Assembly: GCA_036002485.1 (NCBI GenBank)
Contig: DASYTI010000051.1
Span: 1,304 to 65,303 of the forward strand
From: Candidatus Methylomirabilota bacterium
Lineage (GTDB): Bacteria > Methylomirabilota > Methylomirabilia > Rokubacteriales > CSP1-6
DNA: 64,000 bases
Direction: 5' to 3'
Each line of letters opens with the position of its first letter. Within the stretch, counting starts at the first letter, position 1. A model generated the notes under the pieces. It did no database searches. It was not told the DNA's origin and saw only the letters and a program-made list of their open reading frames with translations. Shown here one piece after another: positions 2,475 through 45,051 of this stretch. Position numbers and translations under genes: made by a program.

Positions 2475-2495
2475 GGCGGACGCGCGGGGGCCGCC

Positions 2496-3653: not shown

Positions 3654-3701
3654 CTCGGCTAGACGGAAGGCAGCAAAGGCGATGCCGGAGGGCGCCCACT
3701 G

Positions 3702-4277: not shown

Positions 4278-4291
4278 GAGGGGGACGACCC

Positions 4292-11644: not shown

Positions 11645-11678
11645 CGCCGACGGGCTTCAGGCGAGGGACCGCGGCCGG

Positions 11679-12815: not shown

Positions 12816-12843
12816 GGCGGGCAGGCTCGCCGGGCCGCCCGGC

Positions 12844-22837: not shown

Positions 22838-22875
22838 TGACGCTCCTCTCTCTGGGTGCTACGCTCGGCCCCGCG

Positions 22876-23193: not shown

Positions 23194-23194
23194 C

Positions 23195-23551: not shown

Positions 23552-23775
23552 TGCCCCGCTTCCTTCATCTCATCAAGCGGGACTCCCTGCCCCTGGCCCC
23601 CGCCCTCGTGGCGCGGCAGCTTCAGGAGCCCGGCGCGGAGGTCACCGTGGTGCTCCTCGACGGCGCCGCTCCCGCCCTGCCCGCGGGGGTGGCCGTCAAG
23701 CGTCTGGGCGCCGACCTCGATCACGATGCGCTCCTGGATCTGATCTTCGCGAGCGATCACGTGGTCACCTGGTAG
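23551..23775 (+). CDS. DsrH/TusB-like small protein
   Basis: 74 aa; ATG overlaps the upstream TGA (TGATG); third member of a coupled trio. Weak similarity, assigned mainly by position and size. Confidence 0.4.
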   Translation: MPRFLHLIKRDSLPLAPALVARQLQEPGAEVTVVLLDGAAPALPAGVAVKRLGADLDHDALLDLIFASDHVVTW

Positions 23776-23806
23776 CTCGCGCGGCGGCGAGAGGCCGACG
23801 TGGGCA

Positions 23807-24013
23807 TCATCTGTCCTGGTACTCTTCGTGCCACTTCATCTGAATCTTCTCGAGGACGCCCTCGTTGGAGGCCTTGGGGTCATCGCGGAATCCCGCAAGG
23901 GCCACCACCCACTTGTGCAGGTCGGTGAAGCGCACGGTGAGCGGGTCCACGTCGGGGTGCTCGTCCATGAGGGCGAGCGCGATGTCCTCGGCATCCTTCC
24001 AGGTCATGGCCAT
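23807..24013 (-). CDS. iscX: Fe-S assembly protein IscX (YfhJ)
   Basis: 68 aa; DVDPLTVRFTDLHKWVVALAGFRDDPKASNEGVLEKI is a near-perfect IscX match. Confidence 0.9.
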   Translation of the reverse strand: MAMTWKDAEDIALALMDEHPDVDPLTVRFTDLHKWVVALAGFRDDPKASNEGVLEKIQMKWHEEYQDR

Positions 24014-24026
24014 CTCCGAATCTCCA

Positions 24027-24350
24027 TCATTTGGGAATCTCGACCACGACGTCGCCGCGCACCACGGCCTGGCAGCCGAGGCGGGAGTGCAGGGTCAGCC
24101 CCTCGGCGGTGTCGAGACGGTCCTCCTCGTCCAGCTCCATCGTCGAGAGGTTCTCCTCGCCTTCCCGCACCACGACGTGACAGGTCGTGCAGGCGCAGCT
24201 GCCCCCGCAGTTGTGCTCGAGCTTGATGTTGTTGGCGAGCGCGATATCCAGGAGCGAGCCCGGCTTCCCGTGGTCGGCCAGCGGATACTTGCTCTCGTCG
24301 ACCTCCACCGTCACGTTGAGGGGCAGGAAGGTGACCTTGTGGGTTGCCAT
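24027..24350 (-). CDS. fdx: ISC-type [2Fe-2S] ferredoxin
   Basis: 107 aa; CGGSCACTTCHV...C cluster motif; ATG overlaps hscA stop (TGATG). Confidence 0.9.
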   Translation of the reverse strand: MATHKVTFLPLNVTVEVDESKYPLADHGKPGSLLDIALANNIKLEHNCGGSCACTTCHVVVREGEENLSTMELDEEDRLDTAEGLTLHSRLGCQAVVRGDVVVEIPK

Positions 24351-26179
24351 CACGGCCCCTTCAAGATCTGGTCGGCCCGCCGGGACGTCACGGCCTCCTT
24401 GAGGGCCGCCTCCAGCATGATCTGCGCCAGGGGCTCGGTGGCCCGGTTCAGTGCGGTGGTGCGCTCCCGGATCGCGTCGCGGTCCGTGCCCGCCTCCACG
24501 GCGCGAAGCACGTCGATGGCCTCGCTGATCCGCCGCCGCTCCTCGGCGCCCACGAGGTGGCCGCCCTGGGCGAGGGCCCGCCGCACATGGTTCATGACCG
24601 TCTCGGCTTCCGTCCTCGTCTCGATGAGCAGCCGCGCATTGACGTCAGCCTCCGCGTGGGTAAAGGAGTCTTCCACCATCTGGGCGACCTCGGCCTCGCT
24701 GAGCCCGTAGGTCGGCTTGACCTCGATGGCGGCCGCCTTGCCCGTGCGCTGCTCCCGGGCTTGAACCTGCAGCATGCCGTTCGCGTCGATGAGGAAGGTG
24801 ACCTCGATCTTGGGCATGCCCGCGGGCATGGGATCGATGCCGGAGAGGTCGAAGCGCGCCAGGGAGCGGTTGTCCTTGGCGAGCTCCCGCTCCCCCTGCA
24901 GCACGTGCATGTCGACGGCCGTCTGTCCATCCACCGAGGTCGTGAAGTACTCCTTGGCCATGGTGGGGATCGTGGTGTTGCGCGAGATCAGCACGCTCAC
25001 GATGCCGCCCAGCGTCTCGATGCCCAGGGAGAGGGGCGTGACGTCGAGGAGGAGCATGTCCGTGATGCCGCCCGCCAGGATCTGTGCCTGGATGGCAGCG
25101 CCCAGGGCCACCACCTCGTCGGGATTGAGCTGGCTGTGCGGTGTCTTGCCGAAGAGCTCTTCCACGCGGCGGCGCACCAGCGGTACCCGCGTCGAGCCGC
25201 CCACGAGCACGATCTCGCTCACCTGGTCGGGCGTGAGCCCCGCGTCCTTGAGGGCCAGGCGGCACGGACCGAGCGTCTGGTCCACGAGCGGCGCGATCAA
25301 GCGCTCGAGCTCCCCGCGCGTGATCTCGCGCCGGTACGTGAAGCGCTCGAACGGGATGGTGAGGGTGGTCCGCTCGTCGGCGGACAGGCGGCACTTGGCC
25401 GCCTCCGCCCCCAGACGGAGCTCCTGCACGGCCTCGGGATCGCTCGAGAGGTCCTCGCCGTGGGCCGCCTTGATGTCCGCGAGCAGCCAGTCGACCACGG
25501 CGCGGTCGAAGTCATCGCCGCCGAGATGCGTATTGCCATTGGTGGCCAGGACCTCGAACACCCCGTCCTTGACGCGCAGGATGGAGATGTCGAAGGTGCC
25601 GCCGCCCAGATCGTAGACCGCGATCAAGCCCTGGGCGAGCTTTTGCAGGCCATAGGCGAGCGAGGCCGCGGTGGGCTCATTGACGATGCGAAGCGCCTCC
25701 AGCCCCGCGATGCGCGAGGCGTCCTTGGTCGCCTGGCGCTGGGCATCGTTGAAGTACGCGGGCACGGTGATCACCGCCCGGTCCACCGGCTCGCCGAAAT
25801 GCGCCTCGGCCTGCTGCTTCAGCGTGCGGAGGATCTGGGCCGAGACTTCGGGCGGCGTCACCTCGCGGTCGCCCACGCGGATGCGCACCATCTCGTCGCT
25901 CGCCACGATCTGGAAGGGCACGTGGCGCATCTCGTCCCGGACATCGTCCCCGCCACGGCCCATGAAGCGCTTGATCGAGTAGATGGTCCGCCCGGGATTG
26001 CGGGCGAGCTGCCGCCGCGCGGCCTCGCCGATCACGATCCCGGCCGGCGTGTAGGCGACCACGGAGGGCAGAAGCCGGCGCCCCTCCGCGTCCGGGATGA
26101 CCCGCGGGACCCCGGCCGCGTCCACGTAGGCGACCAGGCTATTGGTGGTGCCGAGGTCAATGCCGACGATGCGCGACAT
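24350..26179 (-). CDS. hscA: Fe-S cluster assembly chaperone HscA (Hsp70 family)
   Basis: 609 aa; [11 protein letters not shown]-terminus and DnaK-like ATPase and substrate domains. Confidence 0.95.
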
Positions 26180-26753
26180 GCGTCTCTACGTCCTCTCCCA
26201 AGGCCTGGCTCAAGTCGTCGATCACCGTGCGCAGGTAGGCCCGCGCGGCCAGGCGCTGCTTGAACCGATCGAGGAGGGGCGCGCGCTCAGCCAGGCGCTC
26301 CACGGCGTCGTCCCACTCCGCCGCCCCGTCGATCACCGCCGTCTCCTCCGCCCGCCGGCGAGCCTCGAGGCGCTCCCGTTCCGCCCTCAGGCGGGCGGAC
26401 GTCTCTGCCGTCAGCCTTGCGGACTTGGCTTCCTCGAGCGCCTCCTGCACCTCGAGCATCTCCTCGAGGAGGTCCGTGGGCGGCCTGGGCTTGGCCGAGG
26501 TCTCCTCGCGGATCTCCCGTCCTTCTTCGAGGGCGATCAGGTACTCCACGCGGGAGATCGGATCGCGGAGTGTCCGGTAGGCGCGGTTGACCAGGGCCGA
26601 GGCCTCGAGCGCGGTGGCCTGCGCCTCGGCGCCCGCCGTCTGATGAAAGTCCGGGTGGTGGCGCCGCGAGAGGTCATAGAAGCGCCGCTGGAGCTCTTGG
26701 AGATCCAGCGAGAGCTTGCGCGGCAGTCCGAACACCTCGAAGTAATCGGTCAC
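26157..26753 (-). CDS. hscB: J-type co-chaperone HscB
   Basis: 198 aa from GTG 26753 (VTDYFEVFGLP...HPD) after GGAG; the listed ORF runs far upstream in frame. Confidence 0.8.
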   Translation of the reverse strand: MTDYFEVFGLPRKLSLDLQELQRRFYDLSRRHHPDFHQTAGAEAQATALEASALVNRAYRTLRDPISRVEYLIALEEGREIREETSAKPRPPTDLLEEMLEVQEALEEAKSARLTAETSARLRAERERLEARRRAEETAVIDGAAEWDDAVERLAERAPLLDRFKQRLAARAYLRTVIDDLSQALGEDVETHVAHRRH

Positions 26754-26848
26754 GTCACGACGTCTCCATAAAATACGAACGGGCCCGCCGGGGCCCGTTC
26801 TGGTTCGCTCCGCTCGGTCCGTGCCCCGGCTATGCCACGGTCCCGGCC

Positions 26849-27175
26849 TTATGCCGAAAACGAGGTTCCACAGCCACAGCTCGATTTGGCCTGGGGGTTG
26901 ATGAAGGTGAACCCCCCCTGCAGCCCTTCCGTGACGTAGTCGAGGGTGACGCCGTTCAGATAGAGGTAGCTCTTCGCGTCGCAGACCATCTGGACGCCGT
27001 CGACGTCGAACTTCTTGTCGTGGGGGCCGAGCTCGGAGTCGAATTCCAGCGAATACGACAGCCCCGAGCAGCCCCCGCCCTTGACCCCCAGGCGCAGGAA
27101 GACCCCGTGGAGGTTCTGGTCCTCCAGGAGCTTCTTGACCTGATTGCTCGCCTTCTCCGTCAGTGCCAGCGCCAT
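26849..27175 (-). CDS. iscA: A-type Fe-S carrier IscA/HesB
   Basis: 108 aa; C-terminal SCGCGTSF motif. Confidence 0.9.
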   Translation of the reverse strand: MALALTEKASNQVKKLLEDQNLHGVFLRLGVKGGGCSGLSYSLEFDSELGPHDKKFDVDGVQMVCDAKSYLYLNGVTLDYVTEGLQGGFTFINPQAKSSCGCGTSFSA

Positions 27176-27190
27176 CAGTCCCTGTCCTCC

Positions 27191-27613
27191 TTACTCTTTC
27201 GATGCCGCGCCCGGGCCCTCGGCTTCCGCCTTGCTCCACTTCTCCTTGTAGTCGTGGAGCGCCGCCTTGATGGCGTCCTCCGCGAGCACGGAGCAGTGGA
27301 TCTTCACCGGGGGCAGCTTGAGCTCGTTGACGATATCGGTGTTCTTGATCTTGGCGGCATCGTCCACCGTGCGTCCCTTGAGCCACTCCGTGGCCAGGCT
27401 CGACGAGGCGATGGCGGAGCCGCAGCCGAAGGTCTTGAACTTCGCGTCCTCGATGACTCCCGTCTCGAGGTTGACCCTGATCTGGAGCTTCATGACGTCG
27501 CCGCACTCCGGCGCCCCCACCAGCCCCGTGCCCACGCCCGGCGTGTCCTTCGTAAAGGACCCGACATTGCGCGGGTTGTTGTAATGGTCCACTACCTTGT
27601 CGCTATAGGCCAT
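27191..27613 (-). CDS. iscU: Fe-S cluster scaffold IscU
   Basis: 140 aa; canonical MAYSDKVVDHYNNPRNVG, GAPECGDVMKLQIRV, FGCGSAIASSS and LPPVKIHCS motifs. Confidence 0.95.
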   Translation of the reverse strand: MAYSDKVVDHYNNPRNVGSFTKDTPGVGTGLVGAPECGDVMKLQIRVNLETGVIEDAKFKTFGCGSAIASSSLATEWLKGRTVDDAAKIKNTDIVNELKLPPVKIHCSVLAEDAIKAALHDYKEKWSKAEAEGPGAASKE

Positions 27614-27648
27614 GTCGCACCATGCCTTCTGGCACCTGGACGGCGCCG

Positions 27649-28875
27649 CTATTCACCCTTCCACTGGATGGTCTTGAGATCCACGCCTTCCTTGGCGAGC
27701 TCGTAGAGCGGGGACATCTCGCGGAGGCGCTGCACGACCTCTACCGAGCGCCGGCCCACGAAGTCCACCTCTTCCTCGGTCGAGAAGCGGTGAAGCCCGA
27801 ACCGGATCGAGGAGTGGGCCAGCTCGGAGTCGACGCCGAGGGCCGCGATGACATAAGAGGGCTCGAGGGTCGACGACGTGCACGCCGAGCCCGATGACAG
27901 CGCGGACTCCTTGTTGAGCCCCATGAGCACCGACTCGCCTTCGACATAGGCGAAGGAGATGTTCAGGTTGTGAGGCAGCCGCTGGGTCGGGTGGCCGTTG
28001 ACATAGGCCTCGTCCACTTTCGAGAGGATGAGATCCTGCAGCCGGTCGCGCAACGCCCCCAGCCGCTTGCCTTCCTCGTCCATGACCTCGCGGCAGATCT
28101 CCGCGGCCTGGCCGAACCCGACGGCCAGGGGTACCGGCACCGTACCGGAGCGCATGCCGCGCTCGTGCCCGCCCCCGTCCATCATGGCCGCCACCCGCAC
28201 CCGGGGACCCTTGCGGCGCACGTAGAGGCAGCCCACGCCCTTCGGCCCGTACATCAGGTGGGCGGTGGCCGAGAGGAGGTCGATGCCCATTGCTTCCACG
28301 TTCACAGGCACCTTGCCCGCGGCCTGGGTCGCGTCGGTGTGGAAGATGATGCCGCGCTCCTTGGCCAGCTTGCCGATCTCGGCGATGGGCTGGATGGTCC
28401 CGATCTCGTTGTTCGCGAACATCACGGAGATCAGGATGGTCTTCTCGGTGATGGCCGCCTTGAGGGCCTCCACGTCCACCAGGCCTTCCCGTCCCACGGG
28501 CAGATACGTCACCTCGAAGCCCTGGCGCTCCAGGCGCTTGCAGACGTCGAGGCTGGCCCGCTGCTCGATGGTCGTGGTGAGGATGTGATTGCCCTTCTCG
28601 CGATACATCTCCGCCACGCCCTTGAGGGCGAGGTTGATGGACTCCGTCCCCCCGGAGGTGAAGACGACTTCCTTCGGATCGCGCGCGCCGATGAGGGTGG
28701 CGATCTGCTCTCGCGCCTTGTCCACCCCGGCTTCCGCCTCCCACCCGAAGGGATGGTTACGGCTGGCCGGGTGGCCGAACTTCTCCGTGAAGTAGGGCAG
28801 CATGGCCTCGAGCACCCGCGGATCCATCGGGGTCGTGGACTGGCTGTCCATGAAGATGGGAAGCTTGAGCGGCAT
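27649..28875 (-). CDS. iscS: cysteine desulfurase IscS
   Basis: 408 aa; IscS-type N-terminus (MPYFTEKFGHPASRNH), SGSACTS active site. Confidence 0.95.
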   Translation of the reverse strand: MPLKLPIFMDSQSTTPMDPRVLEAMLPYFTEKFGHPASRNHPFGWEAEAGVDKAREQIATLIGARDPKEVVFTSGGTESINLALKGVAEMYREKGNHILTTTIEQRASLDVCKRLERQGFEVTYLPVGREGLVDVEALKAAITEKTILISVMFANNEIGTIQPIAEIGKLAKERGIIFHTDATQAAGKVPVNVEAMGIDLLSATAHLMYGPKGVGCLYVRRKGPRVRVAAMMDGGGHERGMRSGTVPVPLAVGFGQAAEICREVMDEEGKRLGALRDRLQDLILSKVDEAYVNGHPTQRLPHNLNISFAYVEGESVLMGLNKESALSSGSACTSSTLEPSYVIAALGVDSELAHSSIRFGLHRFSTEEEVDFVGRRSVEVVQRLREMSPLYELAKEGVDLKTIQWKGE

Positions 28876-28885
28876 CGTCTCTCTC

Positions 28886-29362
28886 CTACCTCGTGGAGAC
28901 CAGCTCGTCCACTGGCACTCCGACTGGCACTCCTACTGGCACTGCTACCGGCCCCACGGGGTCCGCGGCAAGCTCGGCGAGCGTCATGGTGTCGAGCAGT
29001 CGGCTGATGCTGGTCTGGATTTTCTGAACCGGCCGACGCAGATTGCAGCGCGAATACTGCGGACAATCGTCTCCGTCGGTCATGCAGCTCACGATCTTGA
29101 TCGGACCCTCGAGGGCCCGCACCACCTGCCCCACGGTGATCGCGTCGGGGCGGCGCGTGAGCTCATAGCCGCCCTTCGGGCCGTTATGGGCCGTGATGAG
29201 CCGGCTCTTGGCCAGCCGCTGCAGGATCTTGGCGAGGAGCTCCGCGGGAATGTGGAACTCTTCGGCGATGCGCTTGGTGTTCACGGCTCCCTCATCGCCG
29301 TGGGCGGCGATGTAGTGCATGGCCATCAGCCCATAGTCTGCTCGCTTCGTGAACCTCAGCAT
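28886..29362 (-). CDS. iscR: Rrf2-family transcriptional regulator IscR
   Basis: 158 aa; Rrf2 HTH plus three-Cys cluster motif (SCMTDGDDCPQYSRC). Confidence 0.9.
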   Translation of the reverse strand: MLRFTKRADYGLMAMHYIAAHGDEGAVNTKRIAEEFHIPAELLAKILQRLAKSRLITAHNGPKGGYELTRRPDAITVGQVVRALEGPIKIVSCMTDGDDCPQYSRCNLRRPVQKIQTSISRLLDTMTLAELAADPVGPVAVPVGVPVGVPVDELVSTR

Positions 29363-30879: not shown

Positions 30880-32301
30880 CTACTTTTCTTTCTCGAACTG
30901 GTTCTTCAGCTTGCGCAGGTGGAGCTTGGCCACATCCACCCAATCCTTCTCGGTGGGCAGCGGCCCCGCCAGCTGGATGTAACGTTCCCAGAGCGTGATG
31001 GCCTCGCGCGGATCCGTACGCTCGAAGACCAGGGCCAGGTTGTAGAGCGCACCCGTGTTCTTGGGATCCAACTCCACCACCTTCTTGTACTCGGCGATGG
31101 CCTCGGGATAGAGACCCTTGTCCTCGTACACCTCGGCCAGCCCCATTCTGGCCTCGGTATTGAGCGGGTCGAGGTCGACGGCTTTCTTGTAGGCTTGCAC
31201 CGACTCGTAGTAGAGACCCTTCTCCGCGTAGTAGATCTTGCCGAGGCTCGCGTGCACCTGGGCGGAGAGCGGATTGTGGACGAGCGCCTTCTGGTAGGCG
31301 CTGATGGCGCCGTTGACGTCGCCCTTGGCGGCCTTGGCATCACCGAGCCCCACGTGGGCCTCGGCATAGAAGGGCCGGAGGTCTATGGCCTTCGCATAGG
31401 CTTCCTCGGCCTGGTCGAAGAGGCGGCGCGGCGCCGTGAGAAAGAGGTCCCCCAGGGACTTGTAGGGCTCGGGGAAGGTCGAGTCGAGCTGCGTCGAGGC
31501 GCGGAACTGTGCCGCCGCCTTCCACCGATTGCCGAGGGCCTGATGGACGGAGCCGAGCGCGTACTGGGCGAGGACGAACTGCGCGTCGGCTTCGATGGCG
31601 CGAGAGAGGTGCTCCACCGCCGCCTCATTGGCCTCCTGCGTGCCGCGAACGGCCGCGGCGCGACCGCGCACGTAGGACTCCCAGGCCTTGAGGGAGCCCG
31701 TGGGGGCGGCCCACTTCTGCATGCGCGCGGCCTCGGCATCGGAGAGCGGGATCTTGAGCGACCGCGCATAGGCCACGGGCAGCTGGCGCAGCTTCTCGAG
31801 CAGCGCACCGTCCGGCACGGCGATCGGATCGAGGGTTCCCCGCTCCACCCGCTCGCCGCGAACCTCGACCCAGCGGGCCTGGATCGTCGCGTCCCCCGCC
31901 GCCGCGCGGCGTATCTCGCCAAAGAAGGCGACATCGGCCCGGAGCACTCGGGCGGCGGCCACAGTCGCCTGCTCGTCCCAGGCATCGGGCTGCGTCAAGG
32001 ACTGGAGCCGTGACCGCTCGATCAGGATGATGCCGGGGATCTGGCGGAAGCTGCTCATGATCGACTGGGCGGCCGCCTCGCCCATCCACTGCTCTTCGCG
32101 CGGAAGGTCCGGAGTGGCGAAGGGCAGGATGAGCACGCTGCGGACCTTGGTGGCGGCGGCGGCCGGCGTCTGTGCCGACGCGGGCATCGCCCCCCAGACA
32201 AGGAGCCAGGCGGTGCAGACGGCGAGCCAGGCAATGCGGGTGATGATTGCGCGGCGTTTCGAGATGCTGCTATCGGATACGCGGCTACCGATTCGTGTCA
32301 C
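30880..32301 (-). CDS. TPR-repeat protein with signal/TM anchor (BatC-like)
   Basis: 473 aa; multiple 34-aa TPR units; terminal gene of the MoxR/Bat-like operon. Confidence 0.8.
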   Translation of the reverse strand: MTRIGSRVSDSSISKRRAIITRIAWLAVCTAWLLVWGAMPASAQTPAAAATKVRSVLILPFATPDLPREEQWMGEAAAQSIMSSFRQIPGIILIERSRLQSLTQPDAWDEQATVAAARVLRADVAFFGEIRRAAAGDATIQARWVEVRGERVERGTLDPIAVPDGALLEKLRQLPVAYARSLKIPLSDAEAARMQKWAAPTGSLKAWESYVRGRAAAVRGTQEANEAAVEHLSRAIEADAQFVLAQYALGSVHQALGNRWKAAAQFRASTQLDSTFPEPYKSLGDLFLTAPRRLFDQAEEAYAKAIDLRPFYAEAHVGLGDAKAAKGDVNGAISAYQKALVHNPLSAQVHASLGKIYYAEKGLYYESVQAYKKAVDLDPLNTEARMGLAEVYEDKGLYPEAIAEYKKVVELDPKNTGALYNLALVFERTDPREAITLWERYIQLAGPLPTEKDWVDVAKLHLRKLKNQFEKEK

Positions 32302-35300
32302 GTCCGGGCCCTCCCTGGGTGAGGCGCAGGGCGCGGAGCCACGCCCCCATGCGACCGAGAGCGCCGGGGCCGATGCGCCGCAGCGCGATCTCGGGGATCA
32401 GCAGGACGGCCGACAGTCCGACCAGCCACGGCCAGAGGTCGATCCACAGCCGAGACTTGCGCCGATTCTGCAAAAAGACATCGCGCGGCTGGGCGACGGC
32501 ACCGCCGCCCGTCACTTCCGAGATCTCCCGCAGGAATGCCTCGTCCACGCCCAAGTCCCGGAACTCCTGCGCATAGGGTACCACCAGGCCCGCCAGCTGC
32601 GAGCCCACCATCTGGTCGCCCCGCCGCTGCGACATGCCGACCAGGTAGACCCCCTCCTGGGCCGCCGGGAAGCGACCCCGATAGCGGCCTGGCGCGATCT
32701 GCTCGAGCTCGACCACGGAGCGGTACTTGTCCGGAGCGACCACGCCGACCTGTGAATCGAGGAAGTTGACGAACTCGCCCTTCGCATCGATGGCGTCGAC
32801 CACGACCTCGCCCGCCTCGTCCACCCGCGAGACGCTCGCCACCGTATCGCTTCTCGAGCCCGTCCGAAGCGTCCACCGGGTGATCTGGGCCCAGAACTTG
32901 TTGAAGCCGCCCCACCGCAGCCACAGCACCGCCCACTTGCCCTTGGCATCCGAGGTGAACGCGGCGGCCCGGCCGAGCCCGTAGCGCCAGGTGGCGAGCA
33001 GCGGGTCTTCCTGATGCGTCATCAGGACCATCTCGCCATTGCCCTTGAGGGTGGTGGCGACATAGCCACCGAGCGGCGGCGCCTCCTTCCAGTCGATGTC
33101 CTGGATGGCCTCGTGACCCGGCTGGGCGACGGCGGGCTTGAACGGCTGCTCCACCAGCGAGGCCTTGGAGGCGAGCTGCGTCTCGAGGGTGAAGATGCGC
33201 GGGACGGTCGCGCCCTCGTCCGTGTAGTAGAAGCGCCCGCGCCCCCACTTGGCGATGTCGACCATGAGCTGGATGTCGGCGTCCTTGCCGATGGCCACGG
33301 TGGACACCGTGATCTTGTCCTTGGCCATGCGCCGGATCAGGCCGGCGAAGTCACCGCGGGTCATCTGGCCGTCGGACAGGAAGATGACGTGCTTGAGAAG
33401 GGCGGGCCGGTCGAACAGAACCTGGTAGGCCTCCTTGAGGGCGGGGTAGCCGTCGGTGCCCCCGCCGGCCTTGATGGTGGCGATGGCGTGATGGATGGCC
33501 TGCTTGTCACGCGCGGGCCGCATGGCCGAGTCCCAGACGAACTCCGTGTCCCAGCTCATGACCCCGACCTCGTTGCGCTCGTCGAGCAGGTCAACGACCA
33601 GGTGGGAGGCTTCTTTCGCGATGTCGAGCTTGGTCGCCTTGTCGTCGGTAGTCATGGCCATGGAGCCCGACCGGTCGATGGACAGCACCACGGCCAGGCT
33701 CGGGATTTCGATCTTCTGCTTGACCTCCATGGTGACGGGCAGAGCTTCCTCGATGGGCGTCCGGTAATAGCCGCCCAGGCCGAAGCTCTCCTCGCCGCCC
33801 ACCATGATGAGCCCGCCCCCCTGCTCGCGGACGTAGTCGCGGATGTTCTCCATCTGCTTCTTGGTCATCTTGAGCGACGACACATTGGACAGGATGACGC
33901 CGTCGTACTTCTGGAGACCTTGGGCCTCCTTGGGGACACGCTCCGCCTCCACGAGATCCACGTCCACGTGCTGGGCGCGCAGGGCGGCCGTGAGCGCCTG
34001 GGCCTGGCTGCGGTCCTTCTCCACGAGTAGCACCTGGGGGCGGCCCCGCACCACCACCGTGCCAATGGCCCGATTGTTTTCTTCGATGACGTCGCCCTCC
34101 ACGTCGATGGCGGCCTGGAAGACGTGGATGCCGCTCTGCTCGAGCGACTGTCGATAGGAGAAGACGTTCTTGCCCGCGTTGAGCTTGACGACCTGGGACC
34201 CGAGGAACTCACCGTTCCGGAAGAGGGAGAGCCGTCCCTGGGTCTCGGCCTGGCTCCACGCGACCACCTTGGCCTTGAAGGGCTCGCCGAACTTCACCTC
34301 CTGAGGCAGGAGCATGGACTCGACCACGACCTCCTGCTTGAAGGTCAGGGGCGCCGGGACATACCAGATGTCGGCCCCGGCATCCTTGGCCGCCTGCGCG
34401 ACGGCGAGCGCATTGCCCACGTTCTGCCGCCCGTCGGAGAGCAGCACGAATCGGTTGGCGTGGCCGGGGGGCGCCGTGGCCAGGGCCAGCTGGAGCGCCT
34501 GCGCGAGATTGGTCCCTCGTCCGCCCACCGTGGCCTGGGGGCGATCGATCTTGTTGCCCGGCTTGAGCGCCTGATCGACCACCGCCTCCTCACCGAAGAC
34601 GATGACCCCCGACTGGTCGCCGGGCCGCGCGGCGCCGGCCGACTGGGCGGCGAAGCGGAATGCGCTCTCGCGCGCGGCCAGGCTCACGCTGTCGGAGACG
34701 TCCAGGAGATAGATGACGTTGAGACGGTCGACGCCGCGCGGAAGGACGGGCTTGAGCAAGGCCGCCGCGAGCAGGACGAGGAGCACGCACCGCAGTCCGA
34801 GGGCCCAGCGGTCGCCGTCGTTGAAGGGCAGCCCGTACCGCCCCGCCGTCTGTCGCCGCCAGTAGAGCACGCCCTCGATGGTCAGGAGGACGAGGGCAAG
34901 GAGGGCCAGGAACTGCCAGAGCTCGCGCTGCACCGGCACCGGCGCCGTGTCCGCGCGCGCGCCCTCCACGAAGGCGGGAAGCGGCTTGGGCGCCAGCTCC
35001 GACTCGTCGGGACTGAAGAGATTGACGGCGACCTTGGTCTCCCCGCGCGGCGTGGACACCGTGTAGACGCCGACCTCGTCCGTCTCCGTATAGCTGATGG
35101 CCCCGCGGGTCACCTGGGCGCGAACGCTCCGGCCCCCCGGCGTCGTCACCGTGGCCGTGTTCACGCCGTGCTCGACGGGGAGCAGAATGGGCTGACCGGT
35201 CTGAAGCGACAGGCTCGACTGGTCCAGGCCCGCCGGGTGCAGCCAGCGGAGCGACTTGGACATCATGAGCGGGAAGGCCACGCGAAGGGGCAGGTCGGAC

Positions 35301-36679
35301 TGGAAGAGGTCGAAGCCGAAGAAGACGGCCTTCCGGTTCGGCTCCTCCAGGAGGTAGACGAGGGGACCTCCGACGGCCTCGACGAGGATCTTTCCCGCCG
35401 CCATTGGCCGCACGCGCATGGCGTCCTGGATGGCGATCTTGGCGAAGTCGACCTGCCGCATGATCGGATGCTTCCGGTCCCAGTCCATGACCACCGGCGT
35501 CTCGATGCGGCCCAGCACCTCGATGGGCACGTCGGGCGGCGCCGTGTTGACGAGGATGAATCGGCCGGGGCCGAGCTTGGGCGGGCTGACCCCGTCGAGC
35601 ACCACCACGTCGAAGGTCTCCATGCCGCCCTGGTAGGCGTCCGGCTTGCGCACCTCGAGCTTAACTTGAGGGTCGGTCGACAGCTCCTTCTCGAGGAAGA
35701 GGTTACCGGGGCTGACGAGCAGGACATTGATGGCGCGGACGGGCGGGATGACGGCGTAGGCGACGTCGTCGGATGCGAGGTCGTCGGAGACGTTGAGGCG
35801 CGCGCGCACCACGCCGCCGCCCTCGTGCGAGAAGGGCATCACCACCGCCCGCCGCACCTGCGGCTCCAGGGTCAGCGTCTTCTGGGCCACGATGTCGGTG
35901 TTGAGGGTCAGGGTGAAGCTGAACGTCTCGGGCTGATCCGAGAAGTTGACGACGGACAGGAACGCCTGCGAGTCGTAGGCGCCGATGTAGTTGCGCCGCA
36001 CGGCCAGGTTGGTGATGGCGACGTTGCGGCCGCGCTGGCCCACGCCCACCCAGCGCACACGCACGTCGTCGGCCTGGCCGCGCAGGGCCGCCGGGTGCGC
36101 GCCGTCCGTGAAGACGTGGATCTCCGCGCGGGGGTCCTGCCCGACGAGGGCGCGGGCGGTTCGCACGGCCTCTCCGAGTCGATTCGGCAGGTCACGCGGC
36201 TGGGCGCCGCGGATGGCCGCCAGGGTCAGCTGGCGGTCTCGGCTGAAGGGAGCGAGCACCCGCGGCTGCACGGCGCCCTCGATGACCATGACCTCGGCGC
36301 CCGCGCCGAGCCGGCCGACGAGGTCCAGCGCCTCGCGCTGGGCGCGGCCGAAGCGCGAGGGGTTGACGTCGGTGGCCTTCATGGAGGCCGAGGTGTCGAG
36401 GACGACGACGATGCGCTTGGCCCCGTAGCCCATGACGGTTGCTGCCGGACGGGCCAGGGCCAAGGCCAAGGCGAGCAGGGCCAGCAACTGCAAGATGAGC
36501 AGCGGGTCGCGCTGGAGACGCTGGAAGAAGGTCGAGGCCTCCCGGTCGCGGAGCGAGGGCTTCCAGAGCATGAGGCTCGGCACCGTGGCCTGCCGGCGCC
36601 GCACCTTCAGGAAGTAGAGGAGAAGCAGGGGGACCGACAGGGCGGCCAGGAGCAACGCGAGAGGTTGGAGCAGGCTCAT
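32285..36679 (-). CDS. giant BatA N-terminal / multi-VWA domain membrane protein (BatA/BatB-like fusion)
   Basis: 1464 aa; N-terminus LLLLYFLKVRRR (aerotolerance-regulator BatA N-terminal type), internal TM segments and several VWA-like blocks; start overlaps DUF58 stop (ATGA). Confidence 0.75.
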   Translation of the reverse strand: MSLLQPLALLLAALSVPLLLLYFLKVRRRQATVPSLMLWKPSLRDREASTFFQRLQRDPLLILQLLALLALALALARPAATVMGYGAKRIVVVLDTSASMKATDVNPSRFGRAQREALDLVGRLGAGAEVMVIEGAVQPRVLAPFSRDRQLTLAAIRGAQPRDLPNRLGEAVRTARALVGQDPRAEIHVFTDGAHPAALRGQADDVRVRWVGVGQRGRNVAITNLAVRRNYIGAYDSQAFLSVVNFSDQPETFSFTLTLNTDIVAQKTLTLEPQVRRAVVMPFSHEGGGVVRARLNVSDDLASDDVAYAVIPPVRAINVLLVSPGNLFLEKELSTDPQVKLEVRKPDAYQGGMETFDVVVLDGVSPPKLGPGRFILVNTAPPDVPIEVLGRIETPVVMDWDRKHPIMRQVDFAKIAIQDAMRVRPMAAGKILVEAVGGPLVYLLEEPNRKAVFFGFDLFQSDLPLRVAFPLMMSKSLRWLHPAGLDQSSLSLQTGQPILLPVEHGVNTATVTTPGGRSVRAQVTRGAISYTETDEVGVYTVSTPRGETKVAVNLFSPDESELAPKPLPAFVEGARADTAPVPVQRELWQFLALLALVLLTIEGVLYWRRQTAGRYGLPFNDGDRWALGLRCVLLVLLAAALLKPVLPRGVDRLNVIYLLDVSDSVSLAARESAFRFAAQSAGAARPGDQSGVIVFGEEAVVDQALKPGNKIDRPQATVGGRGTNLAQALQLALATAPPGHANRFVLLSDGRQNVGNALAVAQAAKDAGADIWYVPAPLTFKQEVVVESMLLPQEVKFGEPFKAKVVAWSQAETQGRLSLFRNGEFLGSQVVKLNAGKNVFSYRQSLEQSGIHVFQAAIDVEGDVIEENNRAIGTVVVRGRPQVLLVEKDRSQAQALTAALRAQHVDVDLVEAERVPKEAQGLQKYDGVILSNVSSLKMTKKQMENIRDYVREQGGGLIMVGGEESFGLGGYYRTPIEEALPVTMEVKQKIEIPSLAVVLSIDRSGSMAMTTDDKATKLDIAKEASHLVVDLLDERNEVGVMSWDTEFVWDSAMRPARDKQAIHHAIATIKAGGGTDGYPALKEAYQVLFDRPALLKHVIFLSDGQMTRGDFAGLIRRMAKDKITVSTVAIGKDADIQLMVDIAKWGRGRFYYTDEGATVPRIFTLETQLASKASLVEQPFKPAVAQPGHEAIQDIDWKEAPPLGGYVATTLKGNGEMVLMTHQEDPLLATWRYGLGRAAAFTSDAKGKWAVLWLRWGGFNKFWAQITRWTLRTGSRSDTVASVSRVDEAGEVVVDAIDAKGEFVNFLDSQVGVVAPDKYRSVVELEQIAPGRYRGRFPAAQEGVYLVGMSQRRGDQMVGSQLAGLVVPYAQEFRDLGVDEAFLREISEVTGGGAVAQPRDVFLQNRRKSRLWIDLWPWLVGLSAVLLIPEIALRRIGPGALGRMGAWLRALRLTQGGPGRDTNR

Positions 36680-37569
36680 GCGAGCAGGAGTCCCTTGAGC
36701 TCGCGGAGCACGAGCTCCTCTACGGGGGTGTCGGTGGCCACGCGGTGATAGCTGATCTCGTTGGCGCGGCAGAAGCTCTCGGCGCTCTCCAGAAACTCGC
36801 TCAGGCGCTCGCGGTATCCGCGCATGGCCTCACCGTCCATGGTGAAGTCCTGCATCTCGCCCGTCTCGGCGTCCGTGAGCCGGAGGTCCCCGGCCAGGAC
36901 AGGATTCATCTCCTCGGGCGAGAGCAGGTGAATCACGTGGACATCGAAGCGGCGCTCCAGCAGCGCCTTGAGGCCGCGCTCGTATCCCGCAGGGTCGAGG
37001 AGGTCGGAGATCAGCACGGCCAGGCCTGCCTCGCGCGAGCGGAGCGCGTAGGCCACCAGCGCCTCGGACAGCCCCGTGGGGCCCTCCCCGCGCAGGCGCG
37101 CGGCGAACTCCAGCAGCGAGAGCAATTGCCCGCGCCCGCGCGCCGGGCTCCAGCCCTCGGCCATGCGGTCACGGATGACGGCCACGCCCACCCGCTCGTG
37201 GCTGGCCAGGCCGACGAAGCCCAGGGCCGCGGCCAGCCGCGCCGCGTAGCGGAGCTTGCCGGGATCGCCGAAGCTCATCGACGCGGAGCCGTCGAGGAGG
37301 AGGTGCAAGCGCAGGTCCTCCTCGTCCACGAAGAGCTTGAGATAGAGACGGTCGAGCCGGCCGTAGATATTCCAGTCGACGTAGCGCAGGTCGTCGCCCA
37401 CCCCGTAGGGCCGGTAATCGGAAAACTCGACGCTCATCCCCTTGCGGGGGCTCTTGCGCTCGCCGCGGGTGCGACCCCGGAAGGCCCGCCGGGACAGGAG
37501 GGCGAGCCGCTCGAGCTGCAGGAGGAACTCGGGCGAGAGCAGGTCCTGTCCGCGGGTCGCGGTGGGCAC
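36676..37569 (-). CDS. DUF58 domain protein (MoxR-associated)
   Basis: 297 aa; EFSDYRPYGVGDDLRYVDWNIYGRLDRLYLKLF DUF58 core. Confidence 0.85.
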   Translation of the reverse strand: MPTATRGQDLLSPEFLLQLERLALLSRRAFRGRTRGERKSPRKGMSVEFSDYRPYGVGDDLRYVDWNIYGRLDRLYLKLFVDEEDLRLHLLLDGSASMSFGDPGKLRYAARLAAALGFVGLASHERVGVAVIRDRMAEGWSPARGRGQLLSLLEFAARLRGEGPTGLSEALVAYALRSREAGLAVLISDLLDPAGYERGLKALLERRFDVHVIHLLSPEEMNPVLAGDLRLTDAETGEMQDFTMDGEAMRGYRERLSEFLESAESFCRANEISYHRVATDTPVEELVLRELKGLLLA

Positions 37570-37572
37570 GAG

Positions 37573-39033
37573 CTATCTCTCGTCCAACGCCTTGAAGTAC
37601 TCCTTCACTTGCCCGTGGTAGTCGCGGGGGACCTGCTCGCGGGCGATGTCCTCTTCCATCTGCTTGCGGTACTGGCCGAGCACCCCGAGGTATTGCAGCC
37701 GCGAGGGCACCTTGCCACCGCGTCCAACCATATTGGTGTCGACACCCTCCTTTCGTCCGGCGCGCGATTCGCCCTCGACCCCGACGTCGTAGGGGTTGGT
37801 GCGGAGGCGCTGCGTGGGATCACCCTTGGGGCTGCCGCTCCTGCCCTTGCCCGGCAGAGAGCCTTCGCCCTCCGGGAAGTCGCCGTCGTCGCCCGGCCCC
37901 CCACCCTGGCGGCCATCGCCGCGCCTACCACCGCGCCGCTCATCGTCGCGACCGCCGCGCAGGCCCTTGCCGTCGCGTCCCTTCTCCTCCATGGCGCGGA
38001 GCTTGTTGAGGGCGCGCTCCATGGCTTCCATGGCCCGGTCGGTCTGGCCCTGCTCGAGTGCCTCCATGCCTTCGCCGAGATCGCCCTGGTAGCTCGGATC
38101 GCCCTTGCGGCCGAGCCGCTCCATCTCCTTCATGAGCTCACGCAGCTTGTCGGGCGAGAACTGCTCGCCGCGCAGGCCCCCGCGCAGGGCCTTGGCCTTC
38201 TGGAAGACCATGCGCTGCTGACTCTGCGTGAAGTCACGCTGGAGATCGGGCAAGCGGTCGAGCTGGTCCAGCATCCGGATGCGGTCGTCACCCTTTTTCA
38301 GGAATGCGTTGAAGTCCGGGGCCTGGCTCGAGATCGACGTGTCCTTGAAGATCGCGGAGAGGTCGCCCGGCTGGGAGGACGTGCCGGTGCCGCCGCGGGG
38401 GCCGAAGGTCTTCTCTTGCATGTCGGCGCGCCGGACATCCTCGCGCTTCGGCCCTCGCGGCTGATCCTGGCTCTCCAGCGCGCCGCTCCGATCCGACGGC
38501 TTCGTCTCGTCCTCCTGGCGAGTGGGCGACAAGGTGGGCAGGGCGCCCTGGGGCAGCGGAATGGCCGGAGCCAGGGCGAGAGCCAGGCCCAGGGCCAACG
38601 GCACGGGCACGAGCTTGGCTTCCCGCGGAATGCGGCGAGGGATGACGCGACGGCCGGCGAGGGCCTGGACACGAGAGACGGCATCGGCCACCTGCGCGGC
38701 CACGAGCGGCGTGCGGTCCGGCCGGTCCGCCCACTCGAGTGCGGTGGCGATGCGGTCCTGGAGGCCATAGCCGCGGTCGGCGAGACGCGCGGCCTCGGCA
38801 TCGGGCAGTCGCATGAGGAAACCCGTGACGGCGCCGGCCAGGGCACCGGCGGCGAGGCAGGCGCCCGCCCACGCAAATCCGGCCAAGCCCAGAGAGTCCC
38901 GCAGCACAAGCGGCACCAGGGCCGCGAGCGCACCCATGAACAGGCCGCGGAGCCCGTAGAACTCCGCCCGCCGTAACCGGACTTCCCGGCCGACGCCCGC
39001 CACTGCGCGCTCAAGTATCGTGAGATCGGGCAT
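37573..39033 (-). CDS. hypothetical membrane protein with long charged low-complexity C-terminal region (MoxR-operon member)
   Basis: 486 aa from ATG 39033 (MPDLTILERA) after GAGGAGGG; two or three N-terminal TM helices, then an R/G/D/E-rich region. Confidence 0.6.
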   Translation of the reverse strand: MPDLTILERAVAGVGREVRLRRAEFYGLRGLFMGALAALVPLVLRDSLGLAGFAWAGACLAAGALAGAVTGFLMRLPDAEAARLADRGYGLQDRIATALEWADRPDRTPLVAAQVADAVSRVQALAGRRVIPRRIPREAKLVPVPLALGLALALAPAIPLPQGALPTLSPTRQEDETKPSDRSGALESQDQPRGPKREDVRRADMQEKTFGPRGGTGTSSQPGDLSAIFKDTSISSQAPDFNAFLKKGDDRIRMLDQLDRLPDLQRDFTQSQQRMVFQKAKALRGGLRGEQFSPDKLRELMKEMERLGRKGDPSYQGDLGEGMEALEQGQTDRAMEAMERALNKLRAMEEKGRDGKGLRGGRDDERRGGRRGDGRQGGGPGDDGDFPEGEGSLPGKGRSGSPKGDPTQRLRTNPYDVGVEGESRAGRKEGVDTNMVGRGGKVPSRLQYLGVLGQYRKQMEEDIAREQVPRDYHGQVKEYFKALDER

Positions 39034-39050
39034 GCGCCCTCCTCGACGCG

Positions 39051-40106
<1,056 letters not shown>

Positions 40107-41629: not shown

Positions 41630-41999
41630 GAACTGCCTCAGCCCTCGCCTCGCCGCTGATCAACTCAGCCCTCTCCTCAGGGCTTCGCCCTTCAGCTCGA
41701 ACTGCCACGCCTGCGGGATTTACTCGGGCCTCTCCTCGCGGCTGTGCGCTCAGCTCGAAGAGCGGGCCACGTCTCAGCTCGAACTCTCTCAGCCCTCGCC
41801 TCGCCGTGCTCCTCGCCTGCGGCTCGTCGGCCACGTCTCAGCTCGAACTGCGCGGCCTGCTGTCTCCCGCGAGCGGTCTCTCCAAGTAGTTCACCTGCCC
41901 TCGCGAGCGCGAATGTTCCACTTCGAGCGCCGGCTTGGCCGCGCAATCCGTGCGGGGGGAGGCTTCGGAACGGGGGCGGAGCCCCCTCCGAGCTATCTA
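41630..41999 (+). repeat. cluster of interspersed repeats: 76-nt module C (inverted copy of 49786-49860), iterated TCAGCTCGAAC/CTCAGCCCTCGCC motifs, and module B (copy C3) abutting the selD stop
   Basis: 41637-41712 is the reverse complement of 49786-49860 with 2 mismatches in 76 nt. 41903-42000 matches module B of 11741-11830, and the GGAACGGGGGCGGAGCCCCCTCC hairpin lies immediately 3' of selD. Confidence 0.85.
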
Positions 42000-43073
42000 G
42001 CGCACCGCGATACCGATCTCCCCGGTCACTTCACCGATCTCCCAGCAGGGCTCGCCTCGCCGAGCGAATCCGTCGAGGACCAGCGGCACGTCCTCGCGCG
42101 CGATGCCGAAGAGCAGCCCCCCCGAGGTCTCGGACTCGTAGAGCAGCCCCGCCTGCGCAATCGAGATGCTGGAAGCCAGCGACAGGCGGCCACGGGCACC
42201 GAGGGTGTCCTCGAGATGCTGCCTGTTGCGCTTCATGCCCCCGCTCCACTGCCCCTTCTCGGCGAGGACGAGAGCCCCGGGCAGGAGCGGGATGTCCCGG
42301 AACCGGAGCGCAATGCCCGCGCCCGAGGCCTCCACCATTTCCGCCGCGTGGCCCAGGAGGCCGAAGCCCGTGACATCGGTGGCCCCTCTCACACCTGCCT
42401 CCCTCACCACCTCGGCGGCGCCCCGGTTGAGTCTGAGCATGCTCTGCACGGCGCCTTCGAGGACGACCGCGTCGCAGGCATCGTTCTTGGCCGCGGTGGC
42501 GATGACCCCCGTGCCGAGCGGCTTGGAGAGGAACAGCCGGTGGCCGGGCCGTAGCCCGCCCTTGATCAAGACACGCTTTGGGTGCACGCGGCCGGTTACG
42601 CAGAGACCATACTTGGGCTCGGCGTCGACCACGGTGTGACCGCCCGCGATCACGCCTCCCGCCTCGAGGACCTTGTCGGCCCCGCCCTTGAAGACAGCCG
42701 CGATCACGGCCTTGGGCATCTCGCGAGGGAAGCCCGCGAGGTTCAGCGCGAAGAGAACCTCGCCCCCCATGGCGTAGACGTCGGACATCGCATTGGCCGC
42801 CGCGATAGCTCCGAAAAGATACGGATCGTCGACGATGGGGGCGAAGAAATCCACGGTACTGACCACCGCCACCTCATCGGAGACGCGATAGACGGCGGCA
42901 TCATCGCTCTTGCCGAGGCCGACCAGGAGGTCCGGATGCGCATGCTCACGCAGGCTCTCGAGCACGTCCCGGAGATCTCCGGGACCCATCTTGGACGCTC
43001 AGCCGGCGCAGGCCGCGTAGCTGGTGAGACGGATGGCCTTGCCCGTCTTGGGATCGATGATCTGCGTGTTCAT
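41997..43073 (-). CDS. selD: selenophosphate synthetase (selenide, water dikinase) SelD, selenocysteine-containing (in-frame UGA at 43001-42999)
   Basis: The listed 330-aa ORF (41997-42989) matches SelD but lacks the catalytic N-terminus. Extending upstream through one in-frame TGA gives MNTQIIDPKTGKAIRLTSYAACAG-U-ASKMGPGDL..., aligning to E. coli [21 protein letters not shown] with TGA at Cys17 and Lys20 conserved. A palindromic hairpin follows 13 nt 3' of the UGA. Confidence 0.85.
42960..42998 (-). ncRNA. putative bacterial SECIS hairpin immediately 3' of the selD UGA
   Basis: GUCCCGGAGAUCUCCGGGAC perfect palindrome (42966-42985) starting 13 nt downstream of the UGA codon. Confidence 0.5.
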
Positions 43074-43110
43074 ACGCTTGAAAGACGAAGGGGCCGCCGC
43101 GGAGGCGACG

Positions 43111-44004
43111 CTAGACCGACTCGGACTCGACGAAGGCCCGGAAGGCCTCGGCCAGCGGCGAGCGGCTGCGATCGCGATGCGTGGCGATGTAGAACGAGCG
43201 CGGGATATGGAGCCCGCGCACGGTGAGCGCCCACACGAGCCCGCTCCGGCACTCGTCCTCGATGGCCCGCCGTGAGAGAATCGACACGCCGACCCCCGCC
43301 TTGACGGCCTGCTTGATCGCCTGGGTCGAGCCCATCTCTCCCACCACCCGGAAGGAGGAGAGATCGAGACCCGCCTCGCCGAGGGAGGCCTCGAGCGCCG
43401 CGCGCGTGCCCGAGCCCCGCTCGCGCAAGAGCAGCGGCTGGCCGGCGAGCTCGGCGATCTCGACCTGCGTGCGCCCGTGCCAAGGATGCGCCGCCGACAC
43501 GACGAGCACCATCTCGTCGGGCATCAGCTCGCGATACTCGACGCCCCGATGGCCGAGGCGTCCGCCTACCACGCCCAGCTCCACCTTGCCTTCGGCGATC
43601 CAGTCGGCGACCTGGCGGCTGTCACCGATCAGGAGGGTGACCGAGATGTCGGGAAACTTCTCCTTGAACCGACCCAGGAGGGGCGGCAGGACGTATTCAC
43701 CGGGGATCGTGCTCGCGCCCACGGCCAGCTCGCCGACGAGCTTGCCCTGGAACTGATCCATGGCCTGTCGCGCCTCGCGCTGGAGCTGGAGGATGCGCGT
43801 GGCGTGGCTGACCAGGAGCTGGCCCGCGCGCGTCACCTCCGCGCCCCGGCCCAGACGATCGAGCAGTCGCACGCCCAGCTCCTGCTCGAGGGTGCGGATG
43901 TGCTCCGACACCGTGGGCTGAGTGAGGAAGAGCGCGTCGGCCGCCTTCGAGAACGACTTGAGCTCGGCGACTTTCACGAAGATCTCGAGCTGTCGCAGGT
44001 CCAT
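43111..44004 (-). CDS. LysR-family transcriptional regulator
   Basis: 297 aa; N-terminal LysR HTH (LRQLEIFVKVAELKSFSKAADALFLTQPTVSEHIRTLEQELG). Confidence 0.9.
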   Translation of the reverse strand: MDLRQLEIFVKVAELKSFSKAADALFLTQPTVSEHIRTLEQELGVRLLDRLGRGAEVTRAGQLLVSHATRILQLQREARQAMDQFQGKLVGELAVGASTIPGEYVLPPLLGRFKEKFPDISVTLLIGDSRQVADWIAEGKVELGVVGGRLGHRGVEYRELMPDEMVLVVSAAHPWHGRTQVEIAELAGQPLLLRERGSGTRAALEASLGEAGLDLSSFRVVGEMGSTQAIKQAVKAGVGVSILSRRAIEDECRSGLVWALTVRGLHIPRSFYIATHRDRSRSPLAEAFRAFVESESV

Positions 44005-44323: not shown

Positions 44324-44536
44324 TTAGTGGCAGCCGCACCCGCCGCCGCAACAGCCGCCCCCTGACATGGGGGCGGAACCCGCGGCGGCGGCATTGGTCC
44401 GCACGGAGAGAAGCGAGAGGCGGCGCGTGACGCGGGCGCTCTCGCACGAAGGACAGGCGACGGCCGTCGCGCTCGAGGGGACGTACTTCTCGAACTCGCC
44501 CTCGCACTGATTGCAGCGATACTCGTAGATCGGCAT
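44324..44536 (-). CDS. FmdB-family zinc-ribbon protein
   Basis: 70 aa; MPIYEYRCNQCEGEFE...CPSCES plus Gly/Cys-rich tail. Confidence 0.8.
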   Translation of the reverse strand: MPIYEYRCNQCEGEFEKYVPSSATAVACPSCESARVTRRLSLLSVRTNAAAAGSAPMSGGGCCGGGCGCH

Positions 44537-44579: not shown

Positions 44580-44780
44580 TTACTGGCCGCCGCGCTGCAC
44601 GTAGCTCTTCACGAACTCCTCGGCGTTCTCCTCGAGGATATCGTCGATCTCGTCCAGGAGGTTGTCGAGGTCCTCCTTGATCTTCTTGCCCTTCTTGGCG
44701 ACCTCGGGGTTCGCCCCCGCCGCATCGTCGCCGCCTTCGGGCTTGGTCGGTCTCGTTTCCTTCTTCTTCTGCTCAGCCAT
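44580..44780 (-). CDS. pup: prokaryotic ubiquitin-like protein Pup
   Basis: 66 aa from ATG 44780 (AGGAGGAG SD); C-terminus DNLLDEIDDILEENAEEFVKSYVQRGGQ is the canonical Pup motif ending GGQ. Confidence 0.85.
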   Translation of the reverse strand: MAEQKKKETRPTKPEGGDDAAGANPEVAKKGKKIKEDLDNLLDEIDDILEENAEEFVKSYVQRGGQ

Positions 44781-45051
44781 GAACGACTCCTCCTGAGCCC
44801 GCAAGCGGGCCCGGCGCCGGGGCCTAGATCGTCGGCAGGACTATCCCTGCTGGCCCTGGTACTTCCCCTGCCTGTCCGCATACGCGAATGGCGTGAGGTT
44901 CGTGATCATGCCACAGCGGGCGTAGGTGGACTTCCCCCTGCAGATCGTGAGCACGTTGCGGCGGATCCAGCGATCGCTCACCTGTTCACCCTGTTCGATC
45001 CGTGACGGTCGACCTTCATGCTCGAATGGTATCGCCCGCGTGGAGAAAGAG

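Follow-up and report, generated by a model that had tools for sequence, protein, structure and literature searches.

The stretch of DNA analysed here, called the window below, comprises 64,000 nucleotides (nt) from a Candidatus Methylomirabilota bacterium (assembly GCA_036002485.1, contig DASYTI010000051.1, positions 1,304 to 65,303). Its minus strand carries a selD gene, for selenophosphate synthetase (SelD, selenide water dikinase), in which an in-frame TGA near the 5' end is very probably recoded as selenocysteine (Sec). The read-through frame begins with an ATG at 43073, continues through 24 sense codons (MNTQIIDPKTGKAIRLTSYAACAG), the TGA and another 333 codons, and ends with TAG. Its conceptual translation, MNTQIIDPKTGKAIRLTSYAACAG followed by the stop symbol and ASKMGPGDL..., is 358 amino acids (aa) long with the recoded residue at position 25, and the segment spanning that residue reads AIRLTSYAACAG-U-ASK. 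The standard open reading frame (ORF), 41997-42989, encodes 330 aa and starts at an internal ATG three codons past the TGA. The coordinates and sequences of the original prediction, which was made from the letters of the window, were all reproduced on the minus strand, and the features of the gene are as follows (L numbers denote loci of related genomes, described below).

41997..43073, minus strand: full-length selD coding sequence (CDS), 358 codons plus TAG, predicted Sec at codon 25; based on the translation and the profile matches
43071..43073, minus strand: selD start ATG, aligned with Met in L001-L005 and L013
42999..43001, minus strand: predicted Sec codon, the in-frame TGA; residue 25, equivalent of E. 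coli Cys17
42966..42985, minus strand: candidate Sec insertion sequence (SECIS) hairpin; 5' arm 42985-42978, GAUC loop 42977-42974, 3' arm 42973-42966
42987..42989, minus strand: internal ATG of Met29, the start chosen by ORF callers, giving the 330-aa truncated product
41999-41997, minus strand: selD stop TAG, which ends the read-through frame

The ATG at 43073 had been proposed as a proper start, and the closest relatives agree with it: L001-L005 and L013 have an aligned Met, and conservation collapses upstream, where all sites are variable and protein similarity is gone in the Rokubacteria-clade comparison.

SelD identity and the catalytic loop

The protein encoded by the read-through frame is a SelD. 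Scored with Cys substituted for Sec, the 358-aa product reaches 349.7 bits against the selD profile TIGR00476 (cutoff 125), with profile positions 1-309 of 311 covered, and 305.4 bits against NF002098 (cutoff 299). Position 1 of TIGR00476 falls on residue 15, upstream of the TGA, and this match of the read-through product to the SelD equivalog from its first position bears out the earlier claim that the N-terminal catalytic loop is missing from the 330-aa ORF. In HMMER searches the product matches E. coli SelD (3u0o) over residues 12-347 with E=1.5e-59 and Aquifex aeolicus SelD (2yye) with E=1.3e-54. The two-domain architecture AIRS and AIRS_C (PF00586 and PF02769) is on record for the identical protein and its relatives, and the Asp motifs of the PurM-like fold (DDAAVY, VDFF, SDVYAMGG and TDVTGFGLLGH) are intact in the alignment to E. 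coli.

E. coli SelD is inactive when Cys/Sec17 and Lys20 are missing. The alignment to 3u0o runs without gaps at the N-terminus and places residue 25 on Cys17 and Lys28 on Lys20, so that the original assignment of the TGA to the catalytic Cys position, with Lys20 kept, holds. The loop of catalytic Cys/Sec and Lys20 that characterizes SelD is thus present in the window gene, but only when the TGA is read through.

Conservation of the UGA and of the codons around it

Relatives were collected by a genome scan that kept one genome per species and gave 80 loci, 79 of them with enough upstream sequence to be read in frame. The closest belong to metagenome-assembled genomes (MAGs) of Candidatus Rokubacteria/Methylomirabilota (62-78% identity), followed by many Chloroflexota, and the sequences compared span Methylomirabilota, Chloroflexota and other phyla. 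An in-frame TGA stands at the homologous position in 76 of the 79 loci and TGC (Cys) in the other three (L053, L067 and L072); with the window included, the counts are 77/80 and 3/80, which is the Sec/Cys pair. The TGA is present in all 16 closest genomes, and the site lies within a conserved motif, RLT..A.CAG-TGA-A.K.GP..L.

Coding constraint acts on both sides of the TGA. Within the Rokubacteria-clade alignment of 17 sequences (the 16 closest loci and the window), the 14 codons before the TGA have 6, 4 and 14 variable sites out of 14 at first, second and third codon positions, and the 14 codons after it have 3, 4 and 12. With variation found mainly at third positions, the upstream codons bear the signature of protein coding; this bias and the profile match from position 1 agree in showing them conserved among SelD homologs.

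These data bear on the best surviving of the rival explanations, which we nevertheless consider very unlikely: that the real gene is the 330-aa ORF from ATG 42989, or a decaying pseudogene, with the upstream 24 codons untranslated and the catalytic loop absent. The shorter ORF is what both the ORF listing and all public gene calls report, and the window shows no Sec machinery. The exact protein appears in public calls from three Joint Genome Institute (JGI) metagenomes and one Logan assembly, with a length of 330 aa, and the best 120 database relatives (77-94% identity) all have called lengths of 313-335 aa, spanning only 92% of the query. JGI samples 3300036861, 3300036863 and 3300036864 contain this organism. 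Against a gene that begins at ATG 42989 stand the third-position bias of the upstream codons and their match to the SelD profile from its first position, and the retention of the TGA in 77 of 80 sequences across phyla. Its product would also be inactive by what is established for the E. coli enzyme. The proposed initiator, Met29, aligns with an I of the E. coli structure and a V of the A. aeolicus one, and it is therefore an ordinary hydrophobic position.

The hairpin downstream of the UGA

A perfect 20-nt palindrome, GTCCCGGAGATCTCCGGGAC, occupies 42985-42966, its first base 13 nt past the TGA. In the RNA (GUCCCGGAGAUCUCCGGGAC) its arms form GUCCCGGA-GAUC-UCCGGGAC, which folds into an 8-bp stem with a 4-nt GAUC loop at -14.2 kcal/mol and a UGA-to-loop spacing of 21 nt. 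A 2026 review models the bacterial SECIS (bSECIS) as an apical loop of 3-9 nt on an upper stem of 4-16 bp, with 16-37 nt between UGA and loop, a G as the first or second loop base and a minimum free energy of -7.5 kcal/mol or lower (PMC13188914). The window hairpin lies within every one of these limits. By chance, any given UGA in this window would have only about 0.01 perfect 8-bp hairpins (loop of 3-9 nt) within SECIS range, a likelihood of about 1%, and the hairpin exceeds chance.

The hairpin is conserved and covaries. Across the 17 aligned sequences, paired cells make up 95.6%, a share that falls to 35-56% when the partners are slid by 1-3 columns. Compensatory changes on both sides occur at 3 of the 8 pairs, and the covariation score was reached by none of 500 shuffles. 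One covarying pair of codons changes from CCC/CGG (Pro, Arg) to CCU/CAG (Pro, Gln) and another from GGU/GAC (Gly, Asp) to GCU/GAG (Ala, Glu); amino-acid replacements therefore co-vary in such a way that RNA pairing is kept. The stem is also spelled with codons that are rare here, GGT, GGA and GAT making up 8.7%, 9.0% and 24% of their synonymous sets (jointly about 0.002), and these rare codons are retained across the clade in a genome whose GC content at third codon positions is about 0.88. The suggestion that the palindrome is a bacterial SECIS is thus upheld by the fold of the region, which agrees with the published bSECIS constraints, and by its covariation.

A perfect palindrome could instead act on the DNA, for instance as the operator site of a regulator that binds as a dimer, the neighbouring LysR protein being one candidate, and symmetric double changes would preserve a DNA palindrome as well as an RNA stem; the LysR gene is, moreover, a conserved neighbour. 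We think this even less probable than the short ORF. The palindrome is part of the coding sequence, and its distance from a UGA in the Sec position is the canonical one for a SECIS; in L001 a G-U pair preserves RNA pairing while it breaks the DNA symmetry. Chloroflexota orthologues have different hairpins in the same place that are not palindromic as a whole, and the three Cys-type loci are without comparable hairpins.

The structure found 11-45 nt past the UGA in Chloroflexota Sec-type selD genes (among L017-L080) is unlike the Rokubacteria-clade hairpin. It consists of a short GGGUCC..GGACCU hairpin followed by GGCGCAGGUNCUGCGCC from +26, and this second hairpin, a 7-bp GGCGCAG-GUN-CUGCGCC, begins 26 nt past the UGA. 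The difference between the two groups implies that one orthologous gene has a different SECIS in different lineages.

Status of the UGA and search for other candidate recoding sites

A sequencing or assembly error that turned TGC or TGT into TGA would make this an ordinary Cys-type SelD; a single base separates TGA from TGC, and Cys is encoded at the site in 3 of the 79 related loci. We give this explanation next to no weight. A 45-nt stretch that includes the TGA and the hairpin is identical in four independent assemblies (three JGI metagenomes and one Logan SRA assembly), and the TGA occurs in 16 of 16 closest genomes; an error, named by the original prediction as one way in which it could fail, is excluded because the four assemblies are identical and the TGA is found in 77 of 80 sequences.

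A genome-wide reassignment of UGA (tables 4 or 25), or non-specific read-through without Sec, would also give the full-length protein and has nothing specific in its favour, and we regard it as equally negligible: a reassigned code is excluded because TGA is the commonest ordinary stop in the window, where it ends 29 of the 49 genes of at least 150 aa, several of them with Pfam domains complete to the stop and the next gene 6-14 codons on, and the selD UGA stands exactly at the catalytic Cys position with a conserved hairpin after it.

For all 654 in-frame TGAs flanked by 15 or more open codons per side, codon usage was scored on both sides, and the selD TGA ranks fifth for two-sided coding signal. 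The four that rank higher were rejected as recoding sites: each is an ordinary junction of two complete genes that are unrelated to each other, the second starting 6-14 codons past the stop. Their positions are these.

2498: baeRF/PCC
59836: SDR/rhomboid
3704: SCO1-like/baeRF
14412: DinB/carboxyltransferase

Two of these junctions belong to one group of genes on the minus strand, in which a bacterial archaeo-eukaryotic release-factor-like protein of baeRF family 3/7 (2499-3653) lies between a PCC-domain protein (2037-2474) and a SCO1/SenC-like protein (3705 to about 4290); the three (2037-4298) share one common frame with TGA stops between them. Among genes of selenoprotein families, the TlpA/AhpC-TSA-like and SCO1-like proteins were rejected as candidates, having only Cys in their motifs (WCAPC and CxxxC), as was the IscA/HesB-like protein, which matches its Pfam profile completely and has no in-frame TGA. 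The two-sided TGA scan of the window and the inspection of selenoprotein-family genes gave no second read-through candidate.

Proposed mechanism and assessment

In the mechanism that we propose, translation would initiate at ATG 43073, and the mRNA hairpin at 42985-42966, inside the coding sequence, would recruit SelB with GTP and Sec-tRNA(Sec). The UGA at 43001-42999 (codon 25) would then be decoded as Sec and translation would run on to the TAG at 41997. In the resulting 358-aa SelD, Sec25 and Lys28 would make up the N-terminal catalytic loop, in the places occupied by Cys17 and Lys20 (E. coli numbering) in Cys-type enzymes, and this loop is predicted from the sequence to catalyse ATP-dependent formation of selenophosphate. 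As selenophosphate is the selenium donor for Sec-tRNA(Sec), such a SelD would depend on its own product, a circularity that is recognised for Sec-type SelD and for SEPHS2.

We put the probability that the gene encodes a Sec-type selenophosphate synthetase, its UGA recoded at codon 25, at roughly 0.93. Several results weigh against this view. Neither selA, selB nor selU is found among the approximately 55 window genes annotated with Pfam, ARAGORN detects no tRNA gene of any kind in the 64-kb window, and the 16 closest loci have no selA, selB, selU or tRNA-Sec in their flanks (up to 10 kb per side). Scans for SelA and SelB motifs likewise gave no match in the window or in those loci. No obvious Shine-Dalgarno sequence precedes ATG 43073 in the window. 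Rfam yields no SECIS family or credible match, either across the whole window at gathering thresholds or within 42800-43200 at E values up to 10. In the GAUC loop, G is followed by A and not by the usual G or U. The covariation rests on few evolutionary events among related sequences and in a coding region. The z-score of the fold in its 65-nt context is only -1.9, and the case for the hairpin consequently rests on covariation, position and codon usage and not on overall stability.

Components of the Sec machinery adjoin selD in some relatives. In a Chloroflexi MAG (L031) a tRNA-Sec with anticodon TCA (9782-9878, plus strand) lies about 100 nt upstream of a TGA-type selD, and in a Dehalococcoidia MAG (L066) selB (10957-12891, minus strand; TIGR00475, 305 bits, cutoff 242) is directly downstream of a selD of the TGA type. 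In a Tepidiformaceae MAG (L053) selA (4061-5527, minus strand; TIGR00474, 518 bits) adjoins a Cys-type selD. Methylomirabilota have been reported as rich in selenoproteins: 63 selenoprotein genes are reportedly predicted in one MAG (PMC13188914), and MAGs of the phylum are reported to have group 4 [NiFeSe] hydrogenases of the Sec type (PMC13582414). The loci of the relatives and this literature indirectly support the view that the organism would carry selA, selB and a tRNA-Sec, and it is probably a Sec user. That Sec is actually inserted, that SelB binds the hairpin and that other parts of the genome carry selA, selB and selC is what we infer for it; the sequences themselves show the SelD identity, where the UGA lies and how it is conserved, the coding constraint to either side, and a hairpin that is conserved and covaries. 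Since the organism is a probable Sec user, other UGA-interrupted genes can be expected and are worth seeking in its genome, and it is plausible, as had been suggested, that further TGA-split genes are mis-called genome-wide.

A more far-reaching reading, unlikely in our estimation though less so than any of the rivals weighed above, would make the Rokubacteria-clade hairpin a distinct, minimal class of SECIS: a perfectly paired, unbulged helix of 8 bp capped by a GAUC loop, set within the GPGDL codons. RNA pairing might then drive the residue changes, linking Gly/Ala30 with Asp/Glu36 and Arg/Gln34 with a synonymous change at Pro31, and the hairpin, the conserved AUG of Met29 and the conserved LysR gene upstream might together form a selenium-sensing, autoregulatory unit. 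Under selenium scarcity, translation would stop at the UGA or re-initiate at Met29, whose AUG lies 9 nt past the UGA, and the product would be inactive.

Comparison with known systems and annotation

Sec-containing SelD has been known for decades. The A. aeolicus enzyme (2YYE) has the same fold family and N-terminal loop as the window protein, with SSG-C-AAKVGPGDL where the latter has CAG-U-ASKMGPGDL; its native residue at the aligned Cys is Sec13, and the protein was crystallised as a Sec-to-Cys mutant (PDB 2ZOD/2YYE). Haemophilus influenzae SelD is another Sec-containing bacterial example. Compared with these bacterial proteins, the window gene comes from another phylum (Rokubacteria/Methylomirabilota) and its SECIS sequence is clade-specific; unlike known Sec-type SelDs, it is not annotated as a selenoprotein in public calls. 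With Cys-type E. coli SelD (3U0O) it has in common IRLT, the Lys20 equivalent, DDAAVY, TxDFF, SD(V/I)xAMGG and TDVTGFGLLGH, whereas E. coli has Cys17 in place of the UGA and needs no SECIS.

The hairpin resembles the bSECISearch consensus model in stem, loop, spacing and energy and in lying directly downstream of the UGA within the CDS, and departs from it in the GAUC loop, the commoner pattern being G then G or U. The SECIS of E. coli fdhF, the prototype, carries a bulged U, which the perfect helix of the window stem is without. Eukaryotic SEPHS2 and archaeal SPS2 are, like the window gene, selenophosphate synthetases with Sec and a self-dependent logic, but their SECIS lies in the 3' untranslated region and their machinery comprises PSTK, SecS and EFSec, whereas the window gene, whose hairpin is intragenic, belongs to the bacterial type.

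Selenoprotein genes are known to suffer from truncated annotation, and the value of the present case is of that practical kind: the correct entry for the gene would be a selenoprotein of 358 aa. All of the best 120 database clusters carry the truncated call, as does the majority of the 79 related loci, and surveys of selenium utilisation that use called proteins therefore see N-terminally truncated SelDs. The gene is a new, publicly unannotated Sec-type SelD in a phylum already reported to use Sec, and it leaves the understanding of selenium biology unchanged. Among prokaryotic selenoprotein families SelD is described as second in breadth of distribution, its Sec lying in an N-terminal flexible loop (PMC13188914).

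Neighbouring genes and the rest of the window

The gene order Pup, FmdB-type zinc ribbon, LysR, selD, zf-HC2 (anti-sigma-like, on the opposite strand) and glycosyltransferase is conserved in the Rokubacteria clade. The nearest upstream neighbour is the following.

43111..44004, minus strand: LysR-family regulator (Pfam HTH_1 and LysR_substrate), directly upstream of selD and co-directional with it

Of 16 Rokubacteria-clade loci, 12 have a LysR homologue (60-75% identity) whose end lies about 70-140 nt upstream of the TGA of selD, and the regulator might control selD. On the other side, an extra gene lies between selD and zf-HC2 in two relatives, a CHAT/TPR protein in L003 (6702-9131, plus strand) and a transglutaminase with a twin-arginine translocation (TAT) signal in L008 (3016-4137, plus strand). 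The additional 2-2.6 kb downstream of selD in these loci were considered as possible selenium genes and rejected, as neither protein is selenium-related.

The Pup gene (44583-44804, minus strand) ends in GGQ and is conserved 1.4-1.6 kb upstream of selD in nine related loci. In the window it adjoins the zinc-ribbon gene (44327-44536) and a GHMP kinase gene, and among its annotated neighbours there is no Pfam match to ligase or proteasome genes.

An iron-sulfur cluster (ISC) operon within 21677-29362 (minus strand) encodes Rrf2/IscR, IscS, IscU, IscA, HscA and an IscX-like Fe-S_assembly protein, and a second class-V aminotransferase/cysteine desulfurase lies at 21677-22837 (minus strand). Desulfurases of the class-V type can serve as Sec lyases or as selenium donors to SelD. 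A Bat/MoxR-type cluster at 32288-40106 (minus strand) comprises a MoxR AAA_3 ATPase, a DUF58 protein and a 1464-aa BatA/VWA/GATase1-like protein, together with a 587-aa ORF (37573-39336) for which there was no Pfam match. A second MoxR ATPase (61862-63163, plus strand) is encoded near the end of the window.

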